From an uncultured Planctomycetaceae bacterium (GTDB taxonomy: Bacteria > Planctomycetota > Planctomycetia > Planctomycetales > Planctomycetaceae), in contig CAWFAK010000007.1 of assembly GCA_963813715.1 (NCBI GenBank), positions 960,001-1,024,000 on the forward strand: a DNA stretch of 64,000 nucleotides, given 5' to 3'. The position numbers were made by a program, and so were the translations under genes. Positions within the stretch are counted from its first letter, which is position 1; the number at the start of each line of letters is the position of its first letter. A model generated the notes under the pieces. That model did not search any database, was not told the DNA's origin, and was given only the letters and a program-made list of their open reading frames with translations. Of this stretch, positions 4,747-63,865 are shown in pieces.

Positions 4747-4848
4747 AAGTTGACTCGCCGTCGCGCTGGTTCGGCGACCGGTCCGCACAGGTTCAGCTGC
4801 CCGATCGATGATTCACCAAGCAAAACCGACAATCGGGAGCGACGATCA

Positions 4849-4872
4849 AGTGGCGGGAATCGAACCCGCGTT
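4849..4872 (-). other. Orphan tRNA/tmRNA T-arm and 3'-end fragment (att-like scar)
   Basis: Minus strand reads AACGCGGGTTCGATTCCCGCCACT: T-stem GCGGG/CCCGC with a TTCGATT loop. No D arm, anticodon arm or CCA. Confidence 0.6.
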
Positions 4873-5524
4873 CTAACTTAAGCGAAAGCGCCCGTTGCCT
4901 TTTGCGAAAAGTGCCAACTCCGCTGCGCTGCACGGGCGCTGCAAACGGGCGGTCCTAATTGTCATTTCCTGTCATCGATTGACCCTGATTTGTAACGCGT
5001 CATCGCGGCGTGGAGGGTTTGCCGGTTGCGATTCGGAAGGCAGCGATCGCGCTGATTGGGTCTCAGTGAGTGATTGGCTTCAGGGTGTACGGAGGGTGGT
5101 TTCCGGTTTCCTGGTAGCCTCCGTCTGCGATTTTGAGCTGGTTCTGATCCTTTGACTCGGACCCTTGTTCCTGAATGCCCTCTTCCTTCGGAAGAGTCAT
5201 CGTTCGAAATGTGCCCACCAGCCGTTGGACATCTTGTCCGCAATCCCGGCGACGCGGGAATTCTGTTCGACTTTACGCGACCCGTGTGTTTCCAAAGGCC
5301 AGTATGTGGCCATCGATGCGCCGATGCGCGGCGGAGCCGACGCCCGTGAGCAGCACCGCCCGCACAGCCTCCTCGCGACGAAGCGCGTCGCAGGCCAGAT
5401 GCTGTCGTCTCAACTTCATCTCGGCTTGGTTTGTCTCGCTCCGAGGATTCGCGTTGCGACGAGTCTCGATTTAAGATGAAACCTCTAGTTTCCATCCGGT
5501 CGCAACCGCAGCGTTTTGGACGTC

Positions 5525-6586: not shown

Positions 6587-8560
<1,974 letters not shown>

Positions 8561-17200: not shown

Positions 17201-17788
17201 GATCCCCTTCTGATGGGCGTGCTGCACCGCGTGGCAAACTAGCACGAACAAGTCCAAGCGCTTGCGCACGGCAAGGTTGTTACGATCGCAGTACTCGGTG
17301 ATCGGCACGCCGCGAACCAGCTCCATCACAAAGTAGGGCCGCCCGGAATCCGTGGCACCGGCGTCGAGTGCCCGAGCGATGTTCGGGTGGTCCATCAATG
17401 ACAGCGCCTGCAGCTCGGCTTTGAACCGCGCGAGTACCCGGCTCGTATCCATGCCCGGCTTGATGACTTTGAGCGCCACGCGCCGGCGGACCGGCGCCTG
17501 CTGGTCGGCCATATAGACGATGCCGAAGCCACCTTCGCCGATCTGCTCCAACAACTTGTACGGACCGATCACGGTGCCGGGCAGTGCGACGGCGACGGGA
17601 TCGGAAACCGTCGAGGCAAAACCGGGCGCCGGCCCGTCTAACAGACCGTCAGGGTTGTCGTGCGCCAGAAGAAGGGCGTCCAGATGTTGGCGAAGGACGG
17701 GGTCGCCAGCGCAGGCCCGCTCAAGAAAAGCGTCGCGCTCGCCCACCGGACGTTGCAACGCCTCGTGAAAGATCGTTTCCTCGCGCAT
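14260..17788 (-). CDS. Ser/Thr protein kinase with TM helix and WD40-repeat C-terminus (frameshift ~16365)
   Basis: [21 protein letters not shown] and [12 protein letters not shown] segment; WD40 repeats in ORF 14260..16554. Confidence 0.93.
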
Positions 17789-30800: not shown

Positions 30801-32800
30801 GATCGCCTTCTGGGACGAGTCGAGTCCCGCCTTGGCCAGGTCGCTGGAACCGTAGGCGAGTCCCGCGGCACTTTGCCAGGTCGCCAGGCTGGCGTGCGCG
30901 GCCGCCAGGTCGTTTTGAAACGCGACCACCGCAGGATGCTCGCGGGCGAGGGTCTCCCACAGGCTCACAAACTTCAGGAGCGTCCGTTTGGCCTTTGCCG
31001 GGTCGTTCGGCATCGCGGTGACCTGCTTCGGGTCTCGATTTGCCTTCCAAAATCCGGCGACTCGGCGCTGTTCCTCTTTGGCGTCCGGAAATTTGCTGTG
31101 CAACCGCTCAACCAGTTCCAGGCCGGACGCCATGGCGTCGATGGCGTCGTCGTTCCGGTCGACTTCGTGATCGATTTCGGCCAATCGGAGATCGGCCACC
31201 GCCAAATCAGCCAGCAGCGCGGGACTATCGCCGCGCTCGCTCAGAAGTGTCTGGTAATAACGGGCCGCATCCTCGAGCAGTTCCTTGCGAAGCGGCAGTA
31301 AAGTTGGCAGGTCTAACAGCTTGCTTTGGCTGACGCGCGTGAAGTACTGGTCGACCGCCTGACGGGCGCGCTTCAAATTCTCTTCCGCCTGCTGCCGCTC
31401 ATGCTCGGCGATTTGCCGTTGGGCCGCTTCGGCCTTGCTCGCCCGTTCCGCATCGGCGCGGGCGGCGGCTTCAGCCTGCAAGCGAGATTCGGCGAGGTGC
31501 TCAGCACTGGTCGCGCGAATCGCTTGCGTGACGCTGACCACTGTTCCCACGAGGATCGCCGACAGCACCACGATCGACGTCGTGAACGCCACGCGGTTGC
31601 GGCGGGCAAACTTCGCAAGCCGATACGTGACCGAAGGGGGACAGGCGAGAACCGGCTCGTCGGCCAGATGCCGTTCGACGTCCATCGCGAGGCCAATCGC
31701 TGTTTCGTAGCGCCGCGTACGATCCTTCTCCAGCGCCTTCATCACGATCCAGTCCAGGTCACCCCGCAAAAGCTGACTCAAGCGGTTGGGATCGGCGTGC
31801 CGATGAGCGGCCACCACGGTCCGACTGTCCCCCAGAGTGCTGATCCGCGTGCTCGGCTTGGCCGGCTCTTCCTCGCGGATGATGCGGCGGATTTCGTCGT
31901 AGGCCGCCTTTTTCAGCCGGTTCTTGTCAAATGGCGTGGTGCCCGTCAAAAGCTCATACAACAACACGCCGAGCGAATAGATGTCGCTCCGCGTATCGAT
32001 GTCCAGGCTGCTCATCTCCGCCTGTTCGGGGCTCATGTAGAGCGGCGTGCCGATCATCTCGGCGAAGCGCGTGAACAGCGTCTCTTCCGTGAGCTGCTGG
32101 TTGATCGCCTTGGCGACGCCGAAGTCGATGACCTTGGGGACCGGGCGGCCGTCGAGCAGCGTGATCAGGATGTTCGACGGCTTGATGTCGCGGTGGATGA
32201 CCCCCTTCTGGTGCGCGTGCTGCACGGCGCGGCAGACGTCCACAAACAGCGCAAGCCGCTCGTGGACGGCCAGATTGTTCTTGTCGCAGTAGTCGGTGAT
32301 CGGCACGCCGCGGACCAGTTCCATCACGAAATAGGGGCGGCCGGAATCGGTAACCCCGGCGTCGAGCGCCCGGGCGATGTTGGGATGGTCCATGAGGGCC
32401 AGCGCCTGCCGCTCGACTTCGAACCGGGCCAGCACCGTCCGGCTGTCCATGCCCGGCTTGATGATCTTGAGCGCCACGCGGCGGCGGACCGGAGCGTGCT
32501 GGTCGGCCATGAAGACGACGCCCATTCCCCCCTCGCCGATTCTTTCCAGCAACTTGTAGGGGCCGATCACCATCCCTTCTTCGCCGGCATCGGCTTCATG
32601 GAGACAGGTCGCCGCATCGCGGGCTGGTCCGTTCAAGAAGTCGCCGACTTTGAAGTGGGCGTGAACCAAGCTGTCAATTTCCGGCGCAGTTGATCGTTCG
32701 GGCCGCAGGCCTGGTCCAGGTAGGCCTCCCGGGCGGCGGCATCTTCGATATCGATCGCCCGTCCGAAGATGGTCTTGGCGTCGCTGCTCGGGGCGTTCAA
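27886..32800 (-). CDS. Ser/Thr protein kinase with long TPR C-terminus (frameshifts ~32685, ~30680, ~30040, ~29735)
   Basis: TTG start giving [32 protein letters not shown]; full kinase motifs; TM; TPR helices in the downstream ORFs. Confidence 0.88.
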
Positions 32801-34112: not shown

Positions 34113-37100
34113 TTAGTTTGTGTCATCGACTCGCCATAGGCGGATCTGATTCATGCCGTCGGCGGTGACCAGGCTGCCGTCCGCTCCGAAGGCCGCGCGC
34201 CAGATGGTCTCCGGCAAGATAAACCTCGTCAGTTCCTCACGCGTGGCGACGTTCCAAAGGGTGAGCGTGGGCCCGGCGATCGTGACGAGCGTTCTGCCGT
34301 CCGGCGACCAGGCAAAATGGCCGACGTCGCCGACTAGCCCGTTCGGCTCCCAAATCGGTTGGCCGGTCAGCGCATCCCAAATCCGCAGCTGCAACCGATC
34401 CCGCCCGGCGTACAACGTCCCATCCGGCGAAAGGCTGCCGCTCGAGAGGACCCGGGCATCGTTTGCAAACGGCTGTGCGAGCCTGAGCCGGGCTTGCTCG
34501 CGCCGCGTGTCGACGTTCCAAAGCGTGATTGCACTGCCGGCGATCGTTGCTAAGGTTCGACTGTCTGCTGCGAACTTGAGCTGGAGCGCTTCACCGGGGA
34601 GCCTGCCAAGTTCGGCCAGCGTGGACGGGTTGCGGAGCACGACGGCCTGCTCGTTTTTCGAACCGGTCGCCGTTGCGAGAATCCGACCGTCCGGTGAGAA
34701 ATCAATCGCTCCGCCATCAGATGCGTGGACCCGGGATTGCCACTGCGCAGCTCTGATGTTCCACAGCGAAAGCCGCTGAGAACCAGCCAGGGCGAGCATG
34801 CGGCTGTCTCGAGAGAAACACACCTGTCCGATCGGCCCGTCGTCGATTTCGAGCTTGCCGGCTTCCCGATTTTTGATGACGTCCCAGAGCGCGGCCATGT
34901 GATCTCCAGGCTTCGCGAAGAAGACGAAGTTCCCGTCAGGAGAGGTTGTCGTCGTCGTGTCTCCGGGGGAACTCGTCACCTGAAATTGCGCGAGTTCGCG
35001 GCGGCTGGCCAGGTCCCAATGCCTCACATCCCTGCGCGGAGGCATCCCCGTCTTCAGTCGCGATTCGAGAAACACGCTCTTGCCGTCGGCAGCAAGACCG
35101 ACCTTGACCGGATAAAAGGCCACGTCCCCCTCAATCGTATCCGGATCGGGTTCGGGCACGATCTTCCAGCGCCTCACGATTCCGTCCGCGGCTCCCGAAT
35201 AGAGCCACTGGCTGTCGGGCGAAAAAATGAGCGCACTAATCCCGCTGGCGTGGCCCTTGAAGATTGCCGTTTCCTTGAAGGTCACCGGATCCCACACGCG
35301 GATGGTCCCGAATTTGTCCCCGGTTGCCAGCAGTTTTCCGTCGGGCGAGAATGTCAGGGCGTTGACCTGACTGGGGAATCCGTCCAGCTCGGTCAGCTTC
35401 TTGCCGGCCTTCCAGTCCCACAATTCCACAACATGCGGCTCCGACCCACGATGGCAAGCCAGGAGCGTCCCATTGGGTGACAACGCCAGGGCAAAGCTCC
35501 ACCGCTTCGGATCAACGTGCTTGAACTTCATGGACCCGGTCGTGAGATCCCAGACCATCGTCGTTGGGCCAACCTGCCAGGCGACTGCCTTTCCCTCCGG
35601 GCCGAGTCGCGCCATTTGAAACGCCGCGCGAGTCATGTGCGGATCGCTGGCGTATGGGTCCAGCGTCCTCTGCTCGCGCCCGTCGGCCGTGTTCCAGAAG
35701 GCTAGTCTGCCGTCCACGGTCGCGGCCGCCAGCGTCGAACCGTCCTCCGAGAATGCGGTCGACCCAAACTCGTAGACCGTTTGGTTGAAGCGGCCTGCCG
35801 GCCGTTCGTTTCCCGTCGCAACATCCCAGAACCGGAGGCTGAGGGTCGCGGATCGAGGCGTTATTTGCCCCTGTGTCGACCTGCTCGCGGTGACGACGGT
35901 TGACCCATCGGCGGAAAATGCCAGGCCGCCGGCCGAAACCTGAGGAATGCTCAGCCGCAGCACGCCGGTCGACGCGTCCCAAAGTCCCAAGGTGCCTTCA
36001 TCACTGGCCGTCGCCAGCGACTTGCCGTCCGGCGAGAGCCGCAAAGCGAGAACGTCGGATTTCGTGTCGAACAAGCGTCCTTTTTGAAAACGGTCGCAGA
36101 GATGCTGGAGGTAATGCCACTCGAAGCCGCGGATTTCCTCCTGGCCCGGTCGCGGTCGATGGCGATCGAGGACCTGTTGAACACGCTCGACGTTTCCGTC
36201 CCGAAAAAAGATGAACGCGCGGTTCATGTCCGAAACGTACAGCGTGTGCCGCAAGTCTCCGAGTGTTTTTTGGAGCTTTTGATTCGCGTCGGCGACATGG
36301 TCGCGCTCCCTGCGGGTTTCCTCCCGCGCCTGCGAAGCCTCCAGCTCGTTATTCTGCGCGATGTGCTCGGCAACGGTCGCGCGAAACGCCTGCCAGGTGC
36401 TGGCGACGGAGCCCAAGACCAGCAACACCAGAAAGGCGCAGCCGATTCGCAGCGCCGTCCGATTCTTATGGGCCAATTTCCGGAGTCGATAGCCCGCGCC
36501 GGGGGGACCGGCCTCAACGGGCTCGTCATTGAGATAGCGCTCGATGTCGCGGGCCAGGCCGTTGGCCGTCTCGTACCGCCGCGTGCGGTCCTTTTCGAGG
36601 GACTTCATCGTGATCCAGTCGAGATCCCCGCGAAACATCCGCGAGAGCCGTGCCGGTTCGGTCCTGCGCAAGGCAGCGATCGCCGGCAGCGTATCGGTGG
36701 AGCGGGAGAGCCGCGTGCTGGGCCGCGGCGGTTCTTCCTCCCGAATGATGCGGATCAATTCCCCGTAGGCCGCCTGCGACAGGCGCTTGCGGTCGAACGG
36801 CGTGCTCCCCGTCAACAGCTCGTACAAGAGCACGCCCAGCGAGTAGATGTCGCTCCGCGTGTCCACGTCGAGGCCCGACATTTCGGCCTGCTCCGGGCTC
36901 ATGTACAACGGCGTCCCGACCATTTGCGCGAAATTTGTGAACAGCGTCTTCTCGGTAAGTTGCTGCGTCGTGGCCTTCGCCACGCCAAAGTCGATGATTT
37001 TGGGCACCGGACGGCCGTCGTGCAGGGTCACGAGCACATTCGTGGGCTTGATGTCGCGGTGAATGATCCCTTTCTGATGGGCGTGCTGGACCGCCTGGCA

Positions 37101-37670
37101 GACCGGGACGAACAACTGCAATCGCTCTCGCACGGACAGGTTGTTTTGGTCGCAGTATTCTGTGATCGGAATCCCGCGGACCAACTCCATCACGAAGTAC
37201 GGATGGCCGGCCGAGGTGGCCCCCGCGTCGAGCACTTTGGCAATATGGGGATGATCCATCAGCGCGAGCGCCTGCCGCTCGGCTTCGAAACGGGCAATCA
37301 CCTGCCGCGAATCCATGCCCGGCTTGATGATCTTGAGCGCGACGCGGCGGCGGACCGGCTCCTGCTGGTCGGCCATGTAGACGACGCCCATGCCGCCTTC
37401 GCCGATCTTCTCCAGCAGCTTGTAGTGGCCGATGAGCGTCCCCGCGCGGCCCAAGTTAGATTGGTCGAGCAAGGTCGCCACTTGTTGAGCGGCGGGCTTC
37501 TTCAAGAATCCTTCGGCTAATTGATGGGCTCGGAGGAGCGTGTCGACCTGGGCACGAAATTGCGGATCGGTGCCGCAGGCCCGATCGAGGTACGCGCCGC
37601 GCGCGGCCGCGTCTTCAATCTCGATCGCGTGTCCGAAGACAGTCTTGATCTCGTTTTCAGGCGGATTCAT
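34113..37670 (-). CDS. Ser/Thr protein kinase with TM and WD40 repeats (intact, 1185 aa)
   Basis: Kinase motifs, RGFEWHYL linker and WD40 repeats. Confidence 0.95.
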   Translation of the reverse strand: MNPPENEIKTVFGHAIEIEDAAARGAYLDRACGTDPQFRAQVDTLLRAHQLAEGFLKKPAAQQVATLLDQSNLGRAGTLIGHYKLLEKIGEGGMGVVYMADQQEPVRRRVALKIIKPGMDSRQVIARFEAERQALALMDHPHIAKVLDAGATSAGHPYFVMELVRGIPITEYCDQNNLSVRERLQLFVPVCQAVQHAHQKGIIHRDIKPTNVLVTLHDGRPVPKIIDFGVAKATTQQLTEKTLFTNFAQMVGTPLYMSPEQAEMSGLDVDTRSDIYSLGVLLYELLTGSTPFDRKRLSQAAYGELIRIIREEEPPRPSTRLSRSTDTLPAIAALRRTEPARLSRMFRGDLDWITMKSLEKDRTRRYETANGLARDIERYLNDEPVEAGPPGAGYRLRKLAHKNRTALRIGCAFLVLLVLGSVASTWQAFRATVAEHIAQNNELEASQAREETRRERDHVADANQKLQKTLGDLRHTLYVSDMNRAFIFFRDGNVERVQQVLDRHRPRPGQEEIRGFEWHYLQHLCDRFQKGRLFDTKSDVLALRLSPDGKSLATASDEGTLGLWDASTGVLRLSIPQVSAGGLAFSADGSTVVTASRSTQGQITPRSATLSLRFWDVATGNERPAGRFNQTVYEFGSTAFSEDGSTLAAATVDGRLAFWNTADGREQRTLDPYASDPHMTRAAFQMARLGPEGKAVAWQVGPTTMVWDLTTGSMKFKHVDPKRWSFALALSPNGTLLACHRGSEPHVVELWDWKAGKKLTELDGFPSQVNALTFSPDGKLLATGDKFGTIRVWDPVTFKETAIFKGHASGISALIFSPDSQWLYSGAADGIVRRWKIVPEPDPDTIEGDVAFYPVKVGLAADGKSVFLESRLKTGMPPRRDVRHWDLASRRELAQFQVTSSPGDTTTTTSPDGNFVFFAKPGDHMAALWDVIKNREAGKLEIDDGPIGQVCFSRDSRMLALAGSQRLSLWNIRAAQWQSRVHASDGGAIDFSPDGRILATATGSKNEQAVVLRNPSTLAELGRLPGEALQLKFAADSRTLATIAGSAITLWNVDTRREQARLRLAQPFANDARVLSSGSLSPDGTLYAGRDRLQLRIWDALTGQPIWEPNGLVGDVGHFAWSPDGRTLVTIAGPTLTLWNVATREELTRFILPETIWRAAFGADGSLVTADGMNQIRLWRVDDTN

Positions 37671-48580: not shown

Positions 48581-49210
48581 TTGAGCGATCTTTGGATCGG
48601 GCTATCGATCGGTAACGGCCGTTACAGGGTCGCCTCGAAGCTGGGCGAAGGTGGCATGGGCAGCGTCTATCGCGCCTGGGATGCCAATCTCCAGACCGAC
48701 GTCGTGGTCAAAATGCCACACGCTAATGCCCAAGATCCGGAACCGACCGCACGTTTCGCGAGAAGCCAGTTCGCTCGTAAAGTTGAGCCACCCCCACATC
48801 GTCAAGATCGTCGATTTCGCCGAACAAGCTGGGCAGCCGTTCGCGGTGATGCAGTTTCTGTCGGGTGGTAGTCTGGCTACGCGACGGGAGACTTCGAGTG
48901 CCGGCCTCCGCTACCAATCGCCCGACTCGCTGAAGGATTGGCTGCCGGACATGGCCAAGGCGTTTGACTTTGTGCACGCCCGGGGCTTTCTGCACCGCGA
49001 CGTTAAGCCGGCGAACATCCTCTTCGATGAATATGGCAATGCGTTTTTGAGCGACTTTGGGATCACCAAATTTGCAGTCGCCCGCAGGCCGCGAACTCCG
49101 GAAAGAGTTTGACGGGCGCAGGGATGGTCCTCGGAACTCCGGAATACATGGCGCCCGAGGTGATCCTGGGGCAGTCCGCCGACGGCCGTCTTGATCAGTA
49201 CGGCCTCGAT
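48581..49210 (+). pseudogene. Truncated Ser/Thr kinase
   Basis: LGEGGMG, HRDVKPAN, SDFG, GTPEYMAPE and DQY over three frames; ends abruptly. Confidence 0.8.
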
Positions 49211-52980: not shown

Positions 52981-55900
52981 TTATCGAGATCCGCCGCGCC
53001 TTTCGCCTGCGGCGGCGTTCCACTCGGCTTCGATTTCGTCCGGCTTGAGGGTCACGACGACGCCGCTCTCATCAATGCGTTGACCGCTCGTGGCCTTTGC
53101 GAGATGGATCAGTCGCTCACTCGGCGTGCCGTCGTCGAGCGTCCACAAACGAATCACGGCATCTGCGCTGACGGTGACAAGCTGATTTCCCTCGTCGCAG
53201 AAGCCCACAAAGATCACGCGATCGGTATGCTCAAGCAGCGGCGACACTGGCTCACCGGTCGTTGCATCCCACACACGGGCCGTCGTGTCGTTGCTTCCTG
53301 TCGCGAACAAGCTGCCGTCCCCCCGGATGGTGCAACACGTCGCGTCGGCTCGTTGCAGTGGCAGCGTCGCCAGCGGCTCCCCTGTCGGAATGTCCCAGGT
53401 GCCCGCTACGCCGCCTGCCGCGATCGCCGCAAGACGTGTTCCGTCGGCGCTGAATGCAACGCTCGAAGGATTGTTAAGGTTGGCTTGCGCGATGAACTTA
53501 CCGGTGGCCGCGTCGCAGACGATGGCTTGGGTTGACGGCCGAATCGCGAGTAGAAACCGACCATCAGGCGTCAGCCGACAATCGTTGAACTCGCCTTCGG
53601 TGTCGGTGGCGTGAAATTCCGAGAGCAGGTGGCCGGAAACTGCATCCCACAGACAGATTCGAAGACCGCCAGCCGTGTAGATTTTTTGGCCATCGGTGCT
53701 GAACATCGCTCGCTTCAGGCCCTCTCCGTGCCGCAACAGCAAGCGGCCCCGGCCGCCTTGAATCGAAACGACTTGCGCCGTGCCGTCGGAGTTCGCCGCG
53801 ACGAGCGTTGTTTCATCTGGAGAAAGGCTGACGTCGTTCGGCCGCCCGGTTCCGCATTTCACTTCCATTCGTCTGGGTTGCTTCGAGATGTCCCATACGT
53901 CCAGATTGGCATTGTCTCCCGCCAACACCAACGTCATGCCGTCGCGCGCGAATTTCGCGTGACGCGTGCCGGATGAGCCGGTCAGAGCGACCGAACTCAA
54001 ATTCGGCGCATTGAGGTCGCAAAGCTGCGCCGTTCCCTGAGCGCCCGCGAGCAAGAGCCAATGTCCATTTGGGCTGAGTTGCACAATCGATAAAGCGCCC
54101 AGGTCCGCGCAGCGATGCTCGACCTTGGAGGATCCGCCCAGGTTCCACTGGCGGAGAAAGCCGTCGAACCCGGCGGTCAAGACATGGTGCTCGTCATCGG
54201 TCAGCTCCGCCCAGGTGATTCCGTTGGCACAGTCAAACGGCGCTGCAAGCAAAGTCCCGGTCGTCAGATTCCAGACGCGCACGGTCTTGTCGAGGCTCCC
54301 GGTCACAAGCGTCTTCCCGTCTTTCGAGAACGACAGCGTCGAAACGCGTTGCTCATGATGGAGGTCACCCGGCAGGGCGCGCTGGGTTTGCAGATTCCAA
54401 ACGTGCACGCCGCCATCTCGGCAGCCAGCGGCTAACCGTGTGCCGTCACGACTGAATGCGATATGGAGGACGGAGCTGCTAGTGCGGAACTCGAATTTCT
54501 GGGCGCCGGACTTTACGTCCCACGCTCGGACAGCGCCGTCATTGCCGGCCGAATAAAGCAAGTCGCTCTTCGGCGCGAATCCGACACAATTGACCGGTTT
54601 TCCACTTTCGTGCTTTAGTGCCGCGACCTCGGTCGCGGTGACGACCGCCCAGACGTGTGTCGCGCCGTCGTGACAAGCAGTCGCAAGAAGCGAACCATCT
54701 GCGCTGAACGCCAGGTTCTGGACGTCGGATGAATGAGGAAGGATTGGCCCGCGCGGTCTTCCCGTGGAGACGTCCCAGAGCCGTACAGCGCCACCGTGCG
54801 TTGCCGATGCGAGGAGCCGGCTCGTCGGATCGAAGCACATCGCCAGAGGCGCCTTGTTGCTGTCAAGGATGAGCGGATTGCTCGCGAGCGAGGACGTCGG
54901 CCATACGCGGATGACCGCATCATTGCAGAACGTCGCAAGCAGATTTCCGTCGGGGCTGAATGCGCATTGCCAGAGGCCATCGGGATGTTGTAGGACGACT
55001 GGGGAACCAGCAGGGCTGGCGAAATCAAGCACCGTCGCCGCCTTGGAGGCAGTCGTGATCGCGAGCAGAGATCGGTTTGGACAACGCGCAACGGAATTAA
55101 TAGCTCTGCCCAGGAACCAAGTATGGGCCAGGCGCGATGTGTCCATCGCTGTGATCAATCGAACACGGTGGACGGACCTGGAACGCTCACTGGCCGGAAC
55201 TTGATTCAGTGCCGCAGCAAACCAGGGAAGCGCGTGCCTCGGATCGCCCCCTTCCAGGGAAGTGATTCCCTTTGAGACAAAAAGTCTTTCCCGGCTCTCG
55301 CGGTCAGCCTCTTCTGCTCGCCGCGCAGTTTCTGCTTGCTCGGCAAGCCGCTGGTTGGCATTTTCGACTCGACTCGTATAGACGGCGTGCGCAACCGGGA
55401 AGCTGAGCCCCAACGCCACGGCGACGGCAACCAAAATGGCTGTCTTTGGACGTCGTCGGGCCCAGCGACATCCTCGTGCAACCAGTGAGATCGGTCGTGC
55501 TTGGACTGGTAGTCCTTCCAGGAATCGCGTCAGGTCTTCCTCGAGCTCGCGCCGACGCGTAGCGGTCCCGAGGCAGCTTATGCATGCACATAAGGCAGAT
55601 TCTTGCCAGGTCCATCGGCACAACGCGATTCTCCACGCTTGGCGAACGTGGTTCTGCATGGATCACCTGATGCAGGACGCTTTGCACGTTGCCCCGAAAT
55701 GGTCGCTCACCTGTCAACAGCTCGTAGAGGACTACTCCCAGGCTGTAAACGTCGCTCCGCGCATCGACGCTTTTGCCCTCCGCTTGTTCGGGGCTCATGT
55801 AGGCCGGGGTCCCCAGAATCGTCCCGGCGACGGTGATCAACGCCTCCCCCTCGCGCCGGGCCAGGCCGAAATCCATCAAAAACGGCTCGCCGCGTTCGTC

Positions 55901-56820
55901 GAGCATAATGTTCGCCGGCTTGACGTCACGGTGAATCACACCGCGCTCATGCGCGTATTGCAGAGCATCGGCCAGGATACGCACAATTCTTGCAGCCTCC
56001 CGCGGCTCGAATTGGCGGGCAGCCAGGGTCTTGCTCAGCGTCTGACCGCGAACAAATTCCGACACGATGAAGGGCTGCTCGCGCGTCCCTCCGACTTCGT
56101 ACACCGAGACGATGTGCCCATGATGCAAGGCCGCCGCGCTTTGCGCCTCGCGAATGAATCGCTCCTGCTCCCTCTCGGATCCGAGGACGCCTTCTCGGGG
56201 CACTTTGATCGCGACGACTCGCCCAAGACCGGTGTCAATCGCGCGAAAAACAGTGCCGAAGCCCCCCTGCCCGACGGCATCGACCAATCGGAAGCGGCCC
56301 AACGTGCCGGCCGGGATGCGAGCCTCGCTCGGTGCGTCGCGACCGGAGACGGTCGCACCGGAAAAGCCCTTATCCGAAACGCCCGGCGCTGTCGAACGCG
56401 TGGCGCCGATGACAGACAAATCGGCGCCACTGGCGGCTGTTTCCAGCGCTGCCCTGCTCGAGCGCTCGCCCACGTCGCGAGGTTCAGAACCGCTCACCAA
56501 CTCAGCCGCGGCGTTGCTTACCGCCGACATGGGGCCGACCCGCCAGGCGCCTCGATGCGCAACAGCTGGAGGATGACCTGCTCGAATACTTGGAGCTCGG
56601 GAAAGTCGCGCAGGTAATCTTCAGTGCGCTGGGGATGACCGTCTCTCAGGCGGAAATCAAGGTCGATGACGACAAGCGCCTGTAACAAAGCACTGCGCCG
56701 ATGACCCGCTTGCTCGCAATAGTCGTCGATAGCCGGACACTCGCCGCGCCGCCAAGCGTCTTCGAATCGCTTGACAGCCTGGTCGATGTCAACCGCGGAG
56801 ATGGGTGCTTCGGATGACAT
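52981..56820 (-). CDS. Ser/Thr protein kinase with WD40 repeats (frameshifts ~56545, ~55550)
   Basis: RFEDAWRRG N-terminus; GQGGFG, HRDVKPAN, DFG and [14 protein letters not shown]40 array. Confidence 0.9.
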
Positions 56821-57200
56821 GCACAGTCTTCGCAAACGACGATTCGGATCAAAGGACGCGCCTCGGAGCCCGCTGCGCCTTCCGTTCACTCCAACCGTCG
56901 GAATGTCCGTCGGCTCAATAATACCGAGGCGGCTCTTGATCCTGTTCTGAATCTGGGAAAGCGGGACGGCAATCAAAGCATAAACAAATACCCATTTATG
57001 CCAAATTGGGCAGTTTCCCTGGTTGTTTTAGCTGCCTGCCTCCTTGTACACTATCGGAAACCCAAGAGCCGTTCTCGAATCCGTGTGGTATCGCACGTGC
57101 AAAGATAGGGAGCCCGGTGCTCAAAAACCGGAACCCAGCGCCTACGCTGAGCTTGATTTCCAGACTTGTGTTCCCTTCCGCCATCTGTGAGGCTCCAGCC

Positions 57201-57410
57201 ATGCACCTTCCGCTGCAAATGACGGCCGTCCCAAGAAGCCGGAGGGCCCTCTCTGTGCCTCGAACCGCGCAATCGTTGAACCACGTGCGTCCCAACGCCC
57301 TTCAACAGTGTCTCAACCATTTGACATGTTGTACCTGCTCAGGGAGCGATCAGTACGCGTGTTGCTCGACGGCATGCACGTGCAACAACGGCGTACCGGG
57401 GTGTGCTTAA
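57201..57410 (+). CDS. Cys-rich RiPP precursor candidate with cyanobactin (PatE)-like leader, 69 aa
   Basis: GAGG RBS; MHLPLQMTAVPR resembles PatE LPQQGQPVIR; HVRPN resembles the GVEPS/GLEAS site; 37-aa tail with 9 Cys; directly upstream of the PatA-type protease. Confidence 0.7.
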   Translation: MHLPLQMTAVPRSRRALSVPRTAQSLNHVRPNALQQCLNHLTCCTCSGSDQYACCSTACTCNNGVPGCA

Positions 57411-57573
57411 CAGGGGAAGCCCATCCGCGCGTCGTGCGCCGTACAGTCGCGGGGCTGTTAACAAGGAATCAGCAGCAACGGTTGATCAAGCGGTTTTCGC
57501 CGCATAGCGCGCTTCGCCCGGGACGGCAGCGCAAACCTCGCATGGCTGCCCTAGGCTCCTGGCGTGTCGAATC

Positions 57574-59645
57574 GTGGCCTTTCTGGTTTCTCAAAAACGC
57601 GGCGATCGCCTCGGGACGTCCCAAACCGGGCAACTGGCCGTCGAGCACATTCCTGGATTAACGAAGCTGTGGGCCGCGACCAGCGGCGCCCCCGAAATTC
57701 ATGTCGCGATCTTGGATGCGCCGGTCGATCGGGCCAATCCCTGCCTGGCAGCCGCGAGGATCGATCAAGCCTGGTTGGGAGAGCAGACGCACTGCTCTTC
57801 GCACGGAACCGAAGTCGCCAGCGTGATCTTCGGGCAGCACGACTCGGCCGTGCGGGGAATCGCGCCGGGCTGTCGCGGAATCAGCATTCCCATTTACAAG
57901 TGCGATCCCGTTCGCTCTCCCGCGACGAATCAAGTGCAACTGGCTCGCGCGATTCATGAAGCCCTGGCGGCCGGCGGCGCACGTCATCAACGTGAGCGCC
58001 GGACAGTTGGTTCCCTCTGGCATCGCGGAGCCCGAGTTAGCGGCAGCCGTCCGCGCCTGTGCTTCGGCCGGAGTTCTGATCATCGCCGCCGTCGGAAACG
58101 ACGGTTGCGACTGCCTGCATGTGCCGGCCGCACTCCCCTGTGTTCTGGCCGTCGGCGCCATGCGATGGGACGGCAGCCCGGTGCCGGGCAGCAACTGGGG
58201 ATCCATTTACCAAACGCAGGGAATTTTGGCCCCAGGTGAGAACATCGACGTCTGCGGTGCGAACGGACAGCCGATGTCGCGGACGGGATCGAGCTACGCG
58301 ACGGCCATCGTCGCCGGCGTGGCGGCCTTGCTGCTCAGCCGAGAACTCAAACTGGGGCGTTCTCTCCGACCACTTCTTGTTCGCAAGGCCCTGCTAAGCG
58401 CAGCCGACCGATTGGCTCGTGCATCCGCCGACGAAAGGCACCGTTTTCTCGCTGGTCGTTTAGATATTACGGCAACAACGATCTTCCTCGACACCTGGAG
58501 CAACACCATGTCCGATAGCATGAATCTCGACCTGCCCGGTGAAGGCATCTCCGACGGAGGCGCCCCGTGCGACGCCGTGCCCGTCAGTATCCAGCCCTCC
58601 GCCGAGCGAAACGTCGATCCTCCGCGGCTGACGCAGCCTGGCATCTTGCCGACGCAACCGGAACGCCAGGAACGACGCACGAACGCCGTCGAGCCCTCGG
58701 CATGCTCCAGCTGCCGCGGCGAACGTCAGTTGGTCTATGCCCTGGGACGATTGAACTACGACTTCGGCAGCGAGGCCGGCTTGGACGCATTTAAGCAGCG
58801 GATGCGCCATCTGCGACTTCCCGGATGCGATGATCCCAAAATCTTCTGGGAAAATGCGAACCCACTCGATGAACGGCAGTTGAAGATTTTCCTCGGCGCC
58901 ATTCCCGAACAGGAAGCAGATGCGTGGATCTCGGCCCTGCTTTGGACCTTGGAGGTCGGCGGATTGCCGCTCTACGTCATTCGGCCGGAAGGCCCACAAG
59001 CGTCGGTGGCCTACAGGAGCCTCAAGGATTATTACTTTGAGCAATTCCCAACGCACACGAAGCACGAAGAGGCGGAAAACAAGGGGGAACACCAGCACCA
59101 TCAGCAGGACCAACACCAGCAGCAAGCCCCACAAGAGTGCGCAATCGCCGAACAAGTTGGCGTTCCAGGTATCATCGCGGGCCAAGCAACGCTGCATAAC
59201 GGTCTGCGCGTGCCGGCGATCAACCCAGACCTACGGGCCCTCTGCAATTGGAATCGGCATTGTTTGGTCACACAAGTTTTGGGGGACGCACCGGATGCCG
59301 CGCTCAAAGAGTCGCTGGAGGAGTTCCTGGACCACCTCTACTTCGAGTTGCAGAATGCCGGCCTCACCTCGCGAGACCGATCCCTGAATTACGCGGCGAC
59401 CAACCTCGCCGAACCCAAGAAGATTTTCGTCAAAGAGCTCAAGAACAAACACTCACTGGATTCGATCGGCGCCGAGCGCAGCAAACTCTGTCGTCCCGGC
59501 TCCGATTGTTGGGACGTCACGCTGTCGTTCTTCGACCCGAAGAATCCGCTGCACACCGTGCGACTCGGTGCACCGTTACACCATCGATGTCAGCGAGGTG
59601 CTTCCCGTCACAGTCGGCGAGATCCGTTCCTGGAAGACTCGGTAA
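57574..59645 (+). CDS. PatA/PatG family cyanobactin-type S8 protease (PatA-type) with C-terminal PatG-domain; frameshifts ~57975 and ~59567
   Basis: ILDAPVD (Asp), SHGTEVASVIFGQHDS (His), AAVGNDGCDCLHVPAALP, SNWG...QGILAPG and TGSSYAT (Ser); QLVYALGRLNYDFGSEA, SLNYAATN, CRPGSDCWDVTLSFFDP and YTIDVSEVLPVTVGEIRSW. Start is approximate. Confidence 0.92.
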
Positions 59646-59726
59646 CGAAACTTGCAAACTGACGGCTGAGGTTGGGGCGTAGGCGACGCCCCATTGGCCG
59701 GTTTGGTCAGCGCGGCCGGCAACGGC

Positions 59727-61178
59727 CTACGGGAAGAGCTGCGCATACCGCTCGAGGCGATCCGAGCTCGCCAGGCGGCGGAAGATTTCGGGGAAAAGTG
59801 CCAGAGAAATCTGGCACTCCACCTCATCAATTCGCTCTAAGCCCGATCGGGCGAGACACGTGCCTCCGCAGAAGCTGCGCCAATCGCAGTTCTGGCAGGG
59901 ACTGAGACTGGCCGTCGAGCGGCCGCGGATCGTGTCGGCGATCGGGCTGTCGAGGGCGGCCGCGATTCCGTCGCGCTCCATGTGGCCCAACGAGAGGGTG
60001 CGGTCGCCGATGCAGTCGCACGACTCGATCGTCCCGTCGACGCTGATCGAAACGAGGTCCCGGGCCGCGCCGCAGCCATCGCGCAGACACATGCTCCGCC
60101 GATCGCCCGAGAGGACGTTGCGCAGATAGCGCAAAACCGGCGCGACGGTCATCTGGTCGAACTCGCCGGCCTCCACCGCGTCGAAGAGCTCGAAATACGA
60201 TTGGATGACGACGTCGGTGTCGGGAGCAAAATGGGGCATCTGTGTCGCGCGGCCGAGCGGCTGGAAGAGCGTTGCGTCCCAGTGCTTGATGCCGAGGTCG
60301 CGCATGTAGCGGGCCGTCTCGAGCAGTCGGGCGGCGTTCGTGGACGTGACCGTCGTCAGCACGGCGACTTTGGCCAACAGGCGAGGGTTCGAGCGCAGAG
60401 CTTTTTCGATCTCGTCGAACCGTCCCCGTCCCGAGTGATCGACGCGGTGCCGATCGTTGAGGGCGGCCGGTCCGTCGAGGGAAACGCCGATCGAGACCCG
60501 GTTCTCGAGCAGGAAGTCGACGGTTGCCGGCGAGAAATGGCGGCCGTTGGTCTGCACCGAGAAGCGGACCTCGCGTTCTGCCGCGCGGGCGGCTTCGCAC
60601 GCGAAGGGAACGAGCGCGCGGATCTGATCGATGGCCAGAAGCGGTTCGCCGCCATGAAACAAGATTTTGAGGACGGGGCCGGAGCGGGCCAGCGAATCGA
60701 CGATCGCCTTTCGGGCGACCTCGTCCGACAGGCGACGTGAATAGTTCTCGGCCCGAAAGTCGTAGCAATAGTCGCAGGCCAGATCGCAGAAACCGACGAG
60801 CTTGAGGATCAGCGTGTTGAGCGAGCCCGATCCCGCGTTCAATGAACCCGGACGCACACCTCCCTGGCAGCCGGCTCCCTATTGGTCCCGAATCAATCCC
60901 GAGTTTCGCAGGGGATCGAAGAGCGGCGATCGCTCGAGCGCAGGGTCCTCGAAGCCGCTCGACTCGCAGGCGTCGAGAAATTCTTGGACCGCGCCCACTG
61001 ACTGGACCCTGACCATCACCCAGCTGCCGCTGGGCGGGTGGAGCAAGAGGGCAAGCTCGTCGCTCAGGCGGCGCTCGCGAATCGGGCGCAGAACGCGATA
61101 TCGCGGCGGGGCACCCAGCACGGGAAGCGGCGACAACGAGGGCATCGCAATCGTCCCCAGTCCTGACTCAGTGCTCAT
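59727..61178 (-). CDS. Radical SAM/SPASM peptide maturase with N-terminal RRE/PqqD-like domain; in-frame TAG at 60879-60881
   Basis: CDLACDYC, FHGGEPLL, QTNG and GVSLDGP; SPASM Cys pattern MCLRDGCG...SCDC...CQNCDWRSFCGGTC...C. The upstream 99-aa segment (LLLHPPSGSWVMV...LRNSGLI) is in the same frame. Confidence 0.88.
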
Positions 61179-61450
61179 TCCTGGTCGACGTTCTTCATCC
61201 AAATCGACATGAAAGAGAGCCCTTGCGGAACCGCGCTGGCTTTCACAATGGCGATTTCCTTGACGTCAAACTTAGACGTCGCGGCAGAAGTTAACCGGCC
61301 GATTCCGTGGAGCACATCGCGACTCACATCGTCGGCGATCGCGTCCGGGACGATGATCGTGACATTGTCGTCTGTGCTCGGACTCACGGTGTCGAGCGAT
61401 GTCTTCTTGTCTTTTTTCCCCTTTTTGCCCTTCTTTTTCTTTTTCGACAT
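61175..61450 (-). CDS. 91-aa peptide, candidate radical SAM substrate
   Basis: Lys-rich N-terminus; C-terminal GLSFMSIWMKNVDQE; the stop overlaps the maturase ATG (ATGA). Confidence 0.7.
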   Translation of the reverse strand: MSKKKKKGKKGKKDKKTSLDTVSPSTDDNVTIIVPDAIADDVSRDVLHGIGRLTSAATSKFDVKEIAIVKASAVPQGLSFMSIWMKNVDQE

Positions 61451-61563
61451 GCGAGGCCCTTTCCCGGTTGTGGAGCCTGGTCGTTGAACCTGGTTGCGGA
61501 CTCTGGTTGTCGGACCTCCGTTGTCGTGTTCTCTCCATTAAACGCGAGTTGCCTGCCCCGATG

Positions 61564-63865
61564 CTAAGGGGATTTTGCGGCGGATGCCAGCATTGTTTTG
61601 GCCTCATTGTCGAGGCCGGTCAGCTGGCCCGGGGTGAGATGCTCCTTTTGTTTCCAGGCTTCGGCCTTCCGATAGAACTCTTCGGCCCGCGGTTTGTCGC
61701 CGAGCTTCCACCAGGCCATGGCCGCGTAGTACCAATCGAAGCCGTCGCCGCCATCCCGCAGGATCATCGACTCGTCGAGCGAAGCGACGGCCGACCGAAA
61801 ATCGCCCGCCCGGTATTGGGCGACACCCAACGTGTTCCAGTAATTGGCATTTCGCGGCGACATGTCGACCGCCTTGTGCGCGAGGGCGATCGCTTTTTCC
61901 GGATTCCGGATCTTCGGATCGCGATTGTTCGCGAAGACCCAGGCCATCCAGGCGTGCGGATCGGGGTTGGTCGGATCGACCTCGGCGGCGCGCTGGAGCC
62001 ATTCCAGCTCGTGTGGAACGTCGGACCTGAGTTCGTACTTCGTGCCGCACTCGGTGCAATAAAGCGAGAGTTCGCGCTTGTATTGAGAGTTTTCGGGATG
62101 CCGCTCGACGAGGCGTTTGCTGATTTCGATCGACTTGCCGATCGAGCGGAGCGAGGCTTCGATGTCGCTGAGGCGCGGACTCGGCGCCGGACACGTAGTA
62201 GTGAAGGCCGGCAAGATCGTGCGAAAAACCGGCGACGTCGGGATATTGGTCAGCCAAATCCTGCCAGACGTCGCGACTACGCTGCAGAAGCTCCACTCCG
62301 TCGCTGCGGATTCGACGGGCCGCTCGATTTGCGGTTCACATAGTGCGGAAAGCGAAACAGCCCTCCCCTCAGAGGTTCGAGGTCCGCCAGGCCGGCCCCT
62401 TGTTGCCGCAATTTCTCCAGACCGGCGAGGCCCTGTTCCATCTCGGTCTGGGCCTCGTCGGGCTCGCCGTTGACGAGATGTAACTGCCAAAGACGAAAGT
62501 GCGTGGCCGCGACCTCGGCCGCCAGAGCCGGACTCTCGGCGTTTTGAGCGAGAAACTTCTGATAATAGTCCATCGCCGTCGAGACCAGCTCGCGGCGTAG
62601 CGGCTGCACTCCCGGCTCGTCGAGCAAGGGATTGTCGCTGATCGCGGCGAAGTCATCGACCGCGTGTCGGGCCGCCTGCAGGTTAGTCTCGGCATCGACG
62701 CGAGCGTCGCGCTCGCGATCGCGGGCAGCGGCGATCGTCAACGCATCGTACGTCATCACAATGGCAAGCGAGATCGGAACGAACAGAGCCAGGCCGATCG
62801 CCGCAGCCTGCCATGGCTTCCGCTGACACCAGCGCCAAATCCGCTTGGGCCGGCTGGTCCTGCGAGCATAGATCGGTTCCAACCGCAGCCAGCGGTGCAA
62901 ATCATCGGCGAATTCCTGCGCCGTCTGGTAACGGCGAGAGCGTCCTTGTCGATCGCCTTGAGGCAGATCGTCTCCAGGTCGGCCGGGATATAGTTGTTGA
63001 AACTGCGGGGGTTGCGGGGCTCTTCGTTCATCACCCGCTGGATCAGCATCTGGATGTTGCCCCCGAACGGCCGCTCCCCCGTCAACAGCTCAAAGAGCAC
63101 GATGCCCAAGCTGTAGATGTCGCTGCGGCGATCGAGTTCGTGCGAGTTGCCGGCCGCCTGCTCGGGGCTCATGTAGGCCGGCGTTCCGAGAATCTGCCCC
63201 TCCATCGTCAGCGTGACATCGCACTCGGGCCGCAGCGCCAGTCCAAAATCCAGAATTCGCGGCCGGGCGTTCTGGTCAATGATGATGTTCGACGGCTTGA
63301 TGTCGCGATGGACGACGTTGCGCTGGTGGGCGTACTCGAGTCCCTCGGCAACCGCCGCCACAAGCAGCGCCGACTCGCGAAGGGCAAAACGCCGCTGGTT
63401 CATCAGCTTGTCGAGCGATGACCCCAGGACCAGTTCGCTCACAATGCAGGTGCGACCGTCGACCTTGCAAAGATCGAAGATCGGCACGATGGCCGGATGG
63501 TGCAGCTGGGAGGCGCTGCGTGCTTCGCGGGTGAATCGTTGGAATTCGGTCGCGGTCTCCGGGAGCTCTCGTCGCGGCACTTTGAGGGCCACCATCCGGT
63601 CGAGATCCGGGTCGTAGGCCGCGAATACGGTGCCGAAGCCGCCTCGCCCGATCCGATTGATAACCCGAAATCGCCCGACGTTTTTCAGCTCGTCACCAGG
63701 CGACGCGGGCCCTGCGAACTCGGCTGGAACCGGGCCGGTTGGGGCGGTCACATCCTGCTGGAATGCGATGGTCAGGTCGCACTTGGGACAGCGGCTGACC
63801 TGGCCGAATCCCTCCGACGGGATCTCCAGGGGGCTCAAGCACCTGGGGCAGAGCGCTTGCATCAA
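61564..63865 (-). CDS. Ser/Thr protein kinase with N-terminal Zn-ribbon and C-terminal TPRs (several frameshifts at 62.2-62.95 kb)
   Basis: CPRC...[21 protein letters not shown] and [28 protein letters not shown] tail. Confidence 0.88.

Follow-up and report, generated by a model that had tools for sequence, protein, structure and literature searches.

Two probable peptide-maturation modules, one with a PatA-type protease and one with a radical SAM/SPASM enzyme, converge in a soil planctomycete genome

When two small-peptide genes lie close together and each is followed by a candidate maturation enzyme, do they belong to one pathway or to two? This question is raised by a locus in a 64,000-nt stretch of DNA (the window) from the genome of an uncultured Planctomycetaceae bacterium (G000). 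On the plus strand, a gene for a 69-residue peptide with nine cysteines (57201..57410) is followed by a gene for a PatA-type S8 protease with PatG_D and PatG_C domains (57574..59645), and this pair converges on a minus-strand pair in which a gene for a 91-residue peptide without cysteine (61175..61450) is followed by a gene for an RRE-like N-terminal domain fused to a radical S-adenosylmethionine (SAM)/SPASM maturase (59727..61202, with a probable start at ATG 61178). The stop codons of the two enzymes are at 59645 and 59727, leaving 81 nt between them, and genes for receptor-type Ser/Thr kinases stand on both flanks (56976-52981 on the left and 63865-61564 on the right, both on the minus strand). 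The original prediction, made from the letters of the window, had described two converging peptide/enzyme pairs with a gap of about 80 bp and kinases on either side, and every element of that layout is in place. It had offered two readings: a hybrid pathway for a peptide made by the ribosome and modified after translation (RiPP), in which the radical SAM enzyme crosslinks the nine-cysteine core and the protease releases it, or two independent peptide systems that are merely co-located.

We favor the second, and give a probability of about 65% to the following reading: the locus consists of two separate, intact peptide-maturation modules brought tail to tail by a lineage-specific rearrangement, module 1 (56976-52981 and 57201-59645) pairing the Cys-rich peptide with the PatA-type protease, and module 2 (63865-59727) pairing a W-x-K peptide with the RRE-like radical SAM-SPASM enzyme, which would form a Trp-Lys link; each module includes one of the two receptor kinases. 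The observations below show that the genes are intact, that the modules are independent, that each peptide goes with its enzyme, and that both are associated with kinases; the cleavage site and the crosslink chemistry are inferred from them. Both modules are of known kinds (leader-protease processing and radical SAM/SPASM maturation), and each is an undescribed variant with a peptide family of its own. In the literature on PatA or cyanobactin-type systems in Planctomycetes and on planctomycete RiPP radical SAM precursors, we found no paper on these systems; the networks of two large radical SAM and triceptide surveys (PMC10288494, PMC11499958) may already contain the radical SAM family without a name.

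The independence of the modules is seen in how the enzymes are distributed among G000 and the 11 other genomes of the genus. These 12 genomes are kin and several are incomplete, so counts of co-occurrence are descriptive only. The PatA-type protease is found in seven of them (G000-G005, G011) and an ortholog of the radical SAM enzyme, at 61-90% identity, in eight (G000-G003, G006, G007, G009, G010); four genomes have both, three have the protease only, four have the radical SAM enzyme only, and one has neither. They are neighbors in no genomes but G000 and G002, its closest relative at 87-98% amino-acid identity. On one contig of G003 the distance between them is 3.8 Mb, and in G001 they are on two short contigs, each with flanks that lack the partner. 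The original prediction had named the frequency with which homologs of the two enzymes are neighbors as the check on its hybrid pathway, and the frequency found here is an outcome for which it would itself give up the hybrid. Its broader reading of the locus as RiPP biosynthesis, which it would have dropped had neither peptide been conserved or modified, survives for each module separately, as both peptides are conserved.

The radical SAM enzyme comes with its own peptide and its own kinase. A same-strand order of kinase, TPR, small open reading frame (ORF), and N-domain-radical SAM recurs at nine loci in eight genomes, with one contig ending inside the TPR; at these orthologous loci the W-x-K peptide gene is directly upstream of the radical SAM gene in 9/9, and the kinase-TPR gene is upstream of both in 8/9, the ninth being a contig end. 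G009 has two paralogous copies of the cassette, and in this 98% complete genome a 756-residue kinase-transmembrane (TM)-TPR ORF, an 85-residue peptide, and a 481-residue enzyme are found between housekeeping genes. The peptide of the window has a Lys-rich N-terminus, the segments VTIIVPD, HGIGRL, and IAIVKAS, and the C-terminal core SIWMKNVDQE. The family as a whole follows this pattern: the peptides begin Lys-rich, share a (T)ITI(I)VP strand and a VAIV-AS stretch of hydrophobic character, and carry W-x-K a few residues before they end. In our alignment of the peptides (A5), M1, K5, W84, and K86 alone are invariant, and the residue after the Trp varies (WMK, WQK, WHK, WPK). A profile search of 1.84 billion representative sequences gave 38 matches, of which 32 were fetched after leaving out five long proteins of 314-2131 residues (P0125, P0139, P0145, P0149, P0150) and a 51-residue fragment (P0142). 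Among these 32 relatives, 23 have W-x-K, three have W-x-other, and in six the motif is missing or cut.

The 12-kb contig L043 of G010 (7609-7809 on the plus strand and 4760-5002 on the minus strand) carries two kinase-TPR-peptide sets, of which one only has a radical SAM gene. It also has a third Lys-rich peptide, without W-x-K and ending in YVYPISQLPK, that converges on the radical SAM gene.

The enzyme is a single frame of 474-493 residues in all relatives and on the Joint Genome Institute (JGI) metagenome contig L167. It has Radical_SAM and SPASM matches in Pfam, and the CxxxCxxC motif (C128, C132, C135) and nine more cysteines are invariant across 20 family members. The family comprises about 80 clusters of approximately 470 residues at 33-94% identity, all of them unnamed, and no ortholog was found at E <= 1e-50 in 400 other Planctomycetota genomes (none of this genus). 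In an AlphaFold2 model with a mean confidence score (pLDDT) of 87.4, residues 27-100, in the N-domain, form four strands and three helices. The nearest folds found with Foldseek are CteB at full length, including its N-domain (the alignment spans ~463-479 columns), and then anSME, ChlB, TigE, and SuiB. The N-domain, which we call RRE-like or PqqD-like, was compared only as part of the whole enzyme, and it has no PqqD match in Pfam at E up to 0.1.

What would this enzyme do? The invariant W84-x-K86 fits the Omega1-X2-X3 motif of the triceptides, which are defined with an aromatic residue at position 1; in the same paper, HtkB links His to the C-beta of Lys on an HTK motif (PMC11499958). DarE is described as forming a Trp-Lys carbon-carbon link in darobactin (PMC9055067). 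The known triceptide systems (XyeB, YhhB, HtkB, ChlB) and DarE resemble module 2 in placing a radical SAM/SPASM enzyme beside a precursor with an aromatic-X-X motif, the nearest folds include ChlB, and Lys at position 3 has precedents in HTK and W-S-K. Unlike in the triceptides, the motif here occurs once, at the extreme C-terminus of a Lys-rich precursor of 75-105 residues, the enzyme has a putative N-terminal RRE, and in this genus a kinase-TM-TPR gene comes first. We propose that the RRE-like domain would bind the long Lys-rich leader of the 75-105-residue peptide and that the radical SAM enzyme would join the Trp to the Lys two residues on, carbon to carbon, so that a cyclophane of three residues would result, of the type found in triceptides or in the W-S-K of darobactin. 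Based on the motif and its conservation, module 2 probably makes such a Trp-Lys cyclophane.

Several observations weigh against this assignment. W-x-K is not present in 9 of the 32 fetched relatives. Many relatives also end in Cys, so that a thioether or a second modification is possible there. The enzyme does not reach any NCBIfam model: its best match, PapB (NF047865), scores 152-154 bits against a cut-off of 340, which is outside that family, and models of cyclophane synthases give 62-120 bits against cut-offs of 310-650, with the XyeB, YhhB, FxsB, GrrM/OscB, and AmcB family models at 62-108 bits against 310-450. It is therefore possible, although in our view less probable than the cyclophane, that the enzyme makes some other modification: a thioether at Cys (ranthipeptide or QhpD type), an ether, an epimerization, or a bond that joins Trp or Lys to a different residue. 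The best NCBIfam likenesses (PapB, QhpD, anSME) are not to cyclophane synthases, the nearest solved fold is CteB, which like PapB is among the thioether synthases of sacti- and ranthipeptides and appears to share its three-domain architecture with the enzyme here, and many members end in Cys (for example WDKLC and WSKATC). On the other hand, the PapB score is under half of the cut-off, and all of these similarity scores are so far under the family cut-offs that they assign no chemistry. Cys is missing altogether from the peptide of the window and from several relatives, which excludes a thioether as the reaction shared by the family. Finally, the Trp and the Lys are the residues that are invariant in A5, while an Asp after the Trp is not conserved. 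We therefore retain the Trp-Lys cyclophane as the preferred product. Module 2 represents a precursor and enzyme family unnamed in Pfam and NCBIfam, with a C-terminal W-x-K core, that is found in at least three phyla and predicts a specific crosslink.

Outside the genus, radical SAM enzymes of 38% identity occur in Streptacidiphilus anmyonensis and in a Thiodiazotropha metagenome-assembled genome (MAG), where the preceding ORFs end in WTKATCC and WSKATCEWSKATC, respectively, and the kinase gene is missing at both loci. Our scan of contigs with the radical SAM alignment picked up generic radical SAM motifs, and most of what it found were SPASM enzymes of 23-39% identity that are unrelated; the informative loci were these two alone. 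In L085 (3250-7171, the actinobacterium) and L086 (4250-7110, the gammaproteobacterial MAG), the related radical SAM enzyme is found with W-[ST]-K-A-T-C peptides and an LpxL-like acyltransferase, which in L085 was assigned by sequence likeness only. L085 also encodes a CoaC/HFCD-like flavoprotein with a weak CypD match. This suggests that the product in these lineages is lipidated and/or C-terminally decarboxylated.

The peptide of module 1 belongs to a family that follows the protease. It runs from ATG to stop at 57201-57410, with a leader, MHLPLQMTAVPR, a predicted protease site HVRPN/A at residues 28-33 (the slash marks the cut), nine cysteines within the last 33 residues, and a core that ends in CTCNNGVPGCA. 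It has no match in Pfam or NCBIfam, and its sequence is identical in the metagenome contigs L167 and L168. The ATG has a GAGG 9-12 nt ahead of it, and among paralogs the codons of the leader differ at their third positions; from these features the Cys-peptide genes look translated and selected as protein. Members share a 12-residue N-terminal box, M-(N/H/K)-LPLQM-x-AV-x-R, followed about 30 residues into the peptide by a site and then by a Cys-rich core that is hypervariable. Upstream of the protease there are three tandem family ORFs in G003 and four, which are frame-damaged, in G002, all with the N-terminus and Cys framework of the window's peptide. In total, the peptide gene precedes the protease in G000, G002, G003, and the metagenome locus L173, which is from another species. 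Further copies are found elsewhere in G000 (three on contig C6), G002, G003, G004, and G005, and on nine metagenome loci. Within the genus the family was found in five of the seven genomes that have the protease and in none of the five that lack it.

The family is narrow. In 201 genomes of the taxonomic family, full-length matches to the Cys-peptide were found only in this genus, and we treated the weak matches outside it (E >= 7.7e-5), which lie mostly inside frames of 358-609 residues, as unrelated. Among 5.8 billion database proteins there are 23 members only, all "hypothetical" and none with a Pfam domain. All 23, and all copies from the loci we fetched, have [VLI]-x-P-[SAG] about 30 residues in. 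The AlphaFold2 model of the precursor has a pLDDT of 65, below use for a fold search. In a separate region of G000 (L028 on contig C6, 8978-10453, minus strand), three tandem peptides of the same family are longer (~110 residues) and frame-damaged, and they have kinase, nSTAND1 NTPase, and FGE-sulfatase pieces on their upstream side and a DUF1559/N-methyl protein on their downstream side.

The protease gene (57574-59645) encodes Peptidase_S8, PatG_D, and PatG_C domains. Its intact copy on L167 (6374-8440) scores 516.8 bits against TIGR03895, above the cut-off of 421.05, and so belongs to that family, as does the G003 ortholog at 526.6 bits; the window's own pieces, in three frames, give 401.1, 48.7, and 28.9 bits. 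The catalytic triad (D49, H78, S241 in G003 numbering) is present together with the C-terminal DUF domains that characterize the family. Against solved chains, the G003 ortholog matches PatA 4h6w at 262 bits and PagA 3zxx at 233 bits, its C-terminal half matches the PatG DUF 4uvq at 159 bits, and the PatG macrocyclase 4aks gives 134 bits. The label "PatA-type" in the original prediction was thus correct, and so was its statement that no YcaO and no PatG-type macrocyclase are visible here: G000 (7.49 Mb, 18 contigs, 82.6% complete) has zero YcaO (PF02624) matches and only one TIGR03895 locus, with no second protease of the G type that carries a macrocyclase insert. YcaO heterocyclases belong to azoline-containing cyanobactins and not to every cyanobactin. 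According to a review, active cyanobactin clusters always encode both A and G proteases (PMC4663559). The lack of a second one here therefore indicates that a PatA-family protease is used outside the cyanobactin pathway.

There are nonetheless likenesses to PatA/PagA with its precursor PatE. The S8, PatG_D, and PatG_C domains are shared, PatA and PagA are the best solved matches, and the precursor genes sit just upstream of the protease, in some cases as tandem copies, and combine a leader that is conserved with a core that is hypervariable. The tru cyanobactin pathway uses a GVEPS site. PatA is described as cutting after a GLEAS motif (PMC4282754), and the site here, V-x-P-S/A, is likewise short and ends in small residues. 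In contrast to cyanobactins, no PatG macrocyclase, YcaO, PatF, or oxidase was found in the 82.6% complete G000, the peptides carry no recognition sequence at the C-terminus, the cores have 8-12 Cys in 37-90 residues where cyanobactins have cassettes of 6-11 residues, the host is a soil planctomycete genus, and the peptide genes are tied to Ser/Thr kinases.

Binding of the precursor by the protease is supported by a predicted complex. We modeled residues 1-330 of the G003 protease with its own 75-residue precursor in three runs, alongside three controls. The complex score was 0.77 (runs 0.77, 0.77, 0.69), and the best control reached 0.00; in a comparison set, 0.77 was reached by 116/157 solved complexes and 2/215 mismatched pairs, although these counts are only rough as our own alignments were used. 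The runs agree in at least 80% of contacts, with a partner pLDDT of at least 61. The contacts of lowest error place precursor residues 28-32 (H-V-I-P-A) against protease residues 142-145, with P31 on the catalytic His78 and A32 on the catalytic Ser241 and the oxyanion Asn176. We infer that the peptide of module 1 is probably cut by the PatA-type protease. In the proposed mechanism, a cytoplasmic PatA-type subtilisin with cyanobactin DUF domains would remove the leader by cutting after the P-(S/A/N) of G-x-V-x-P-(S/A/N), and the same protease would probably serve the peptide copies encoded elsewhere in the genome. With no heterocyclase and no macrocyclase, the product would be linear, a Cys-rich peptide of 37-90 residues probably held by disulfides or metal. 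This would be a use of a cyanobactin leader protease without heterocyclase or macrocyclase, on long Cys-rich peptides.

Some of the evidence points the other way. G001 and G011 have the protease yet no detected peptide (these genomes are 65% and 67% complete), protease and peptides are unlinked in G004 and G005, and of ten peptide loci with usable flanks the protease adjoins only three. P1 of the site in the window is Asn, which sets it apart from most copies. For module 1 we saw no gene for an exporter, for disulfide formation, or for other tailoring. As to the predicted complex, structures of S8 proteases with bound peptides already exist, so the binding mode may reproduce complexes known to the predictor, and the segment may have been picked out through conserved columns of the alignment.

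We therefore considered an explanation in which the Cys-rich peptides are not substrates at all. They may instead serve the adjacent Ser/Thr kinases as small partners, as ligands, or as regulators, maybe metallothionein-like or disulfide-rich, processed in some other way or not processed, with the protease adjacent by chance and acting on something else. It is true that a kinase gene is beside or within 1.4 kb of all ten peptide loci with usable flanks, compared with three for the protease, and that proteins of PatA/PatG-type architecture are very common outside the genus: more than 1750 database proteins match, with names from Planctomycetia, Pirellulales, Terriglobia, and Thermoproteota, and the architecture is auto-annotated in many non-cyanobacterial MAGs. 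One copy, in G027 from another family of the class, is beside VWA-domain proteins. Even so, we think this explanation unlikely. The order of peptide then protease is kept in three species of the genus and one further metagenome species, the peptide family was found only in protease-bearing genomes (5/7 versus 0/5), and the invariant V-x-P-S/A resembles the PatA site and lies at the catalytic triad in the predicted complex (0.77 versus 0.00). Processing by the PatA-type protease thus remains our preferred account of module 1. At the G027 locus (L027, 4523-15003), the intact 694-residue protease comes after two VWA-domain proteins and converges on a 1258-residue kinase-WD40 gene; the 1.5 kb upstream showed no ORF for a Cys-rich peptide.

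The kinases deserve attention in their own right. The left one (52981..56976, minus strand; Pkinase and WD40 matches in Pfam) has an N-terminal region, the kinase domain, one hydrophobic segment, and a WD40 propeller, and it is divergent from the Cys-peptide gene. The right one (61564..63865, minus strand; Pkinase and TPR matches), the first gene of the radical SAM cassette, has the kinase domain, one hydrophobic segment, and a C-terminal TPR. Both are in three overlapping ORFs in the window, and their transmembrane topology was read from hydrophobic segments in the sequence only. G000 has ~80 Pkinase matches, in roughly 70 genes, in 7.5 Mb. Against this background, a kinase gene is found beside 10/10 Cys-peptide loci with usable flanks, which by orthology represent about seven independent arrangements: a divergent kinase-WD40 gene in the window, L018, L019, L084, and L082; a peptide just upstream of a kinase-WD40 gene in L079 and L080; peptides downstream of a kinase-nSTAND-FGE gene in L028 and L081 (the latter by its like layout, without a family scan); and a convergent kinase-WD40 gene 1.4 kb away in L172.

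We built trees of 79-80 kinase domains (56 of them from G000) with FastTree and a quick IQ-TREE run, which give SH-type (Shimodaira-Hasegawa) supports only; the second tree omits one damaged row. The nine kinases of W-x-K cassettes form one clade (support 99-100). They fall within a set of 19 rows (support 96-97; SH-aLRT 97) together with seven Cys-peptide kinases and three others, so that 16/19 are peptide-adjacent. The surroundings of the three others yielded no small peptide gene of the two families, and two G005 kinases place outside the set. By these trees, the two flanking kinases are paralogs of one peptide-linked subfamily. Building on this, we tentatively suggest, while considering it improbable at present, that both modules are peptide-ligand/receptor-kinase signaling pairs, in which the matured peptide would be exported and sensed by the WD40, TPR, or FGE-type domain, presumed extracytoplasmic, of the adjacent single-pass kinase. 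If true, it would be a bacterial counterpart of the Cys-rich-peptide/receptor-like-kinase signaling of eukaryotes, diversified by co-duplication of peptide and kinase. In any case, the steady pairing of both peptide families with one receptor-kinase subfamily offers a handle on what the very numerous eukaryote-like kinases of planctomycetes sense.

We return to the hybrid pathway, in which the radical SAM/SPASM enzyme would crosslink the nine-Cys peptide before its release by the PatA-type protease. Such partnerships have precedent. In the maturation of quinohemoprotein amine dehydrogenase, the radical SAM enzyme QhpD and the subtilisin-like protease QhpE act on one peptide. The enzymes here match these weakly (124.6 bits versus a cut-off of 453 for QhpD and 23.5 versus 165 for QhpE) and, unlike in the Qhp system, they have no QhpA, QhpB, or QhpC context and are not co-inherited. 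Pairs of a radical SAM enzyme and a serine protease exist elsewhere as well, WprB2/WprP2 being an example from one report (PMC12957482). The physical convergence, with 81 nt between the stops, also speaks for a joint pathway, since it is found here, in G002, and on independent contigs: one short-read contig, from run X1, spans 57000-60297, and the whole arrangement is also on L167 (31.8 kb). We nevertheless regard one shared pathway as very improbable. The enzymes occur independently in the genus and are far apart in G003 and without a partner in G001, as described above; the radical SAM gene never comes without a W-x-K peptide and a kinase-TPR gene of its own before it; and the two genes, being convergent, are not co-transcribed. 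The apparent hybrid thus resolves into two clean, testable units.

The genes of the window are visibly broken, with two frameshifts in the protease, an in-frame TAG in the radical SAM gene, and both kinases split. The G000 assembly is noisy throughout, with an indel load of roughly one per kb. Outside the window, on contig C9 (452772-460787), rpoB is in four frames and rpoC in at least three. Any frameshift or stop in G000 therefore needs checking against other data. The organism is common in soil; the stretch 57000-61600 is present in 20 soil-metagenome runs from 17 studies, and we compared the window with short-read contigs of four runs from four studies. The extra bases at 57976 and 59563 in the protease are missing in 3/3 covering runs. 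In the window, a 107-residue ORF precedes the in-frame TAG of the radical SAM gene (60881-60879). Here three bases are added at 60879-60881 in 4/4 runs, and the short-read contigs add three more at 60852-60858, a second gap in this gene that falls at 60857-58. The gene of the 91-residue peptide has no indels relative to the short-read contigs.

L167 agrees with these contigs. It matches the window at 98.3% DNA identity over 10.5 kb with 19 gap openings, and in it the protease is one 689-residue ORF, the N-domain and radical SAM enzyme are one 493-residue ORF (10006-8525) without a stop, and each flanking kinase is in one frame. Indels specific to the window lie at 55547, 56546, and 56871-75 in the WD40 kinase and at 62175, 62294, and 62942 in the TPR kinase. 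In fact, every broken ORF of the window coincides with an indel relative to the short-read contigs of the four studies and to L167. The protease frameshifts, the TAG, and the split kinases are errors or private variants of a noisy assembly, and the locus is real and intact in nature; the "repair" that the original prediction thought the radical SAM gene would need concerned an assembly artifact. That the locus is decaying, with the protease, radical SAM enzyme, and kinases as pseudogenes, is scarcely credible despite the frameshifts, the stop, and the split kinases, given that the essential rpoB and rpoC are split likewise, that these indels are missing from the short-read contigs and L167, and that orthologs are unbroken in high-quality genomes. 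We had also considered selenocysteine or pyrrolysine read-through of the TAG and a split RRE/radical SAM gene pair, and dropped both as the TAG is not in any other copy.

Upstream of the 69-residue peptide gene, the window differs by 1 nt (57090) and by 8 nt (57146-57158) from runs X1 and X3 and from L167, and does not differ from run X4. Variation within the population, in the non-coding leader region, may account for these differences, or they may be more errors of the assembly.

Over the whole window, Rfam gave zero matches, and a scan for promoters and terminators gave one promoter-like and three terminator-like sites, with no excess over shuffled sequences. Six protein-kinase domain matches are spread through it, at 16697-17560, 31788-32558, 36744-37424, 48747-49085, 55553-56287, and 63038-63667. 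Six Pkinase matches in 64 kb, versus ~80 in the 7.49 Mb of the genome, make the window a kinase-rich island.

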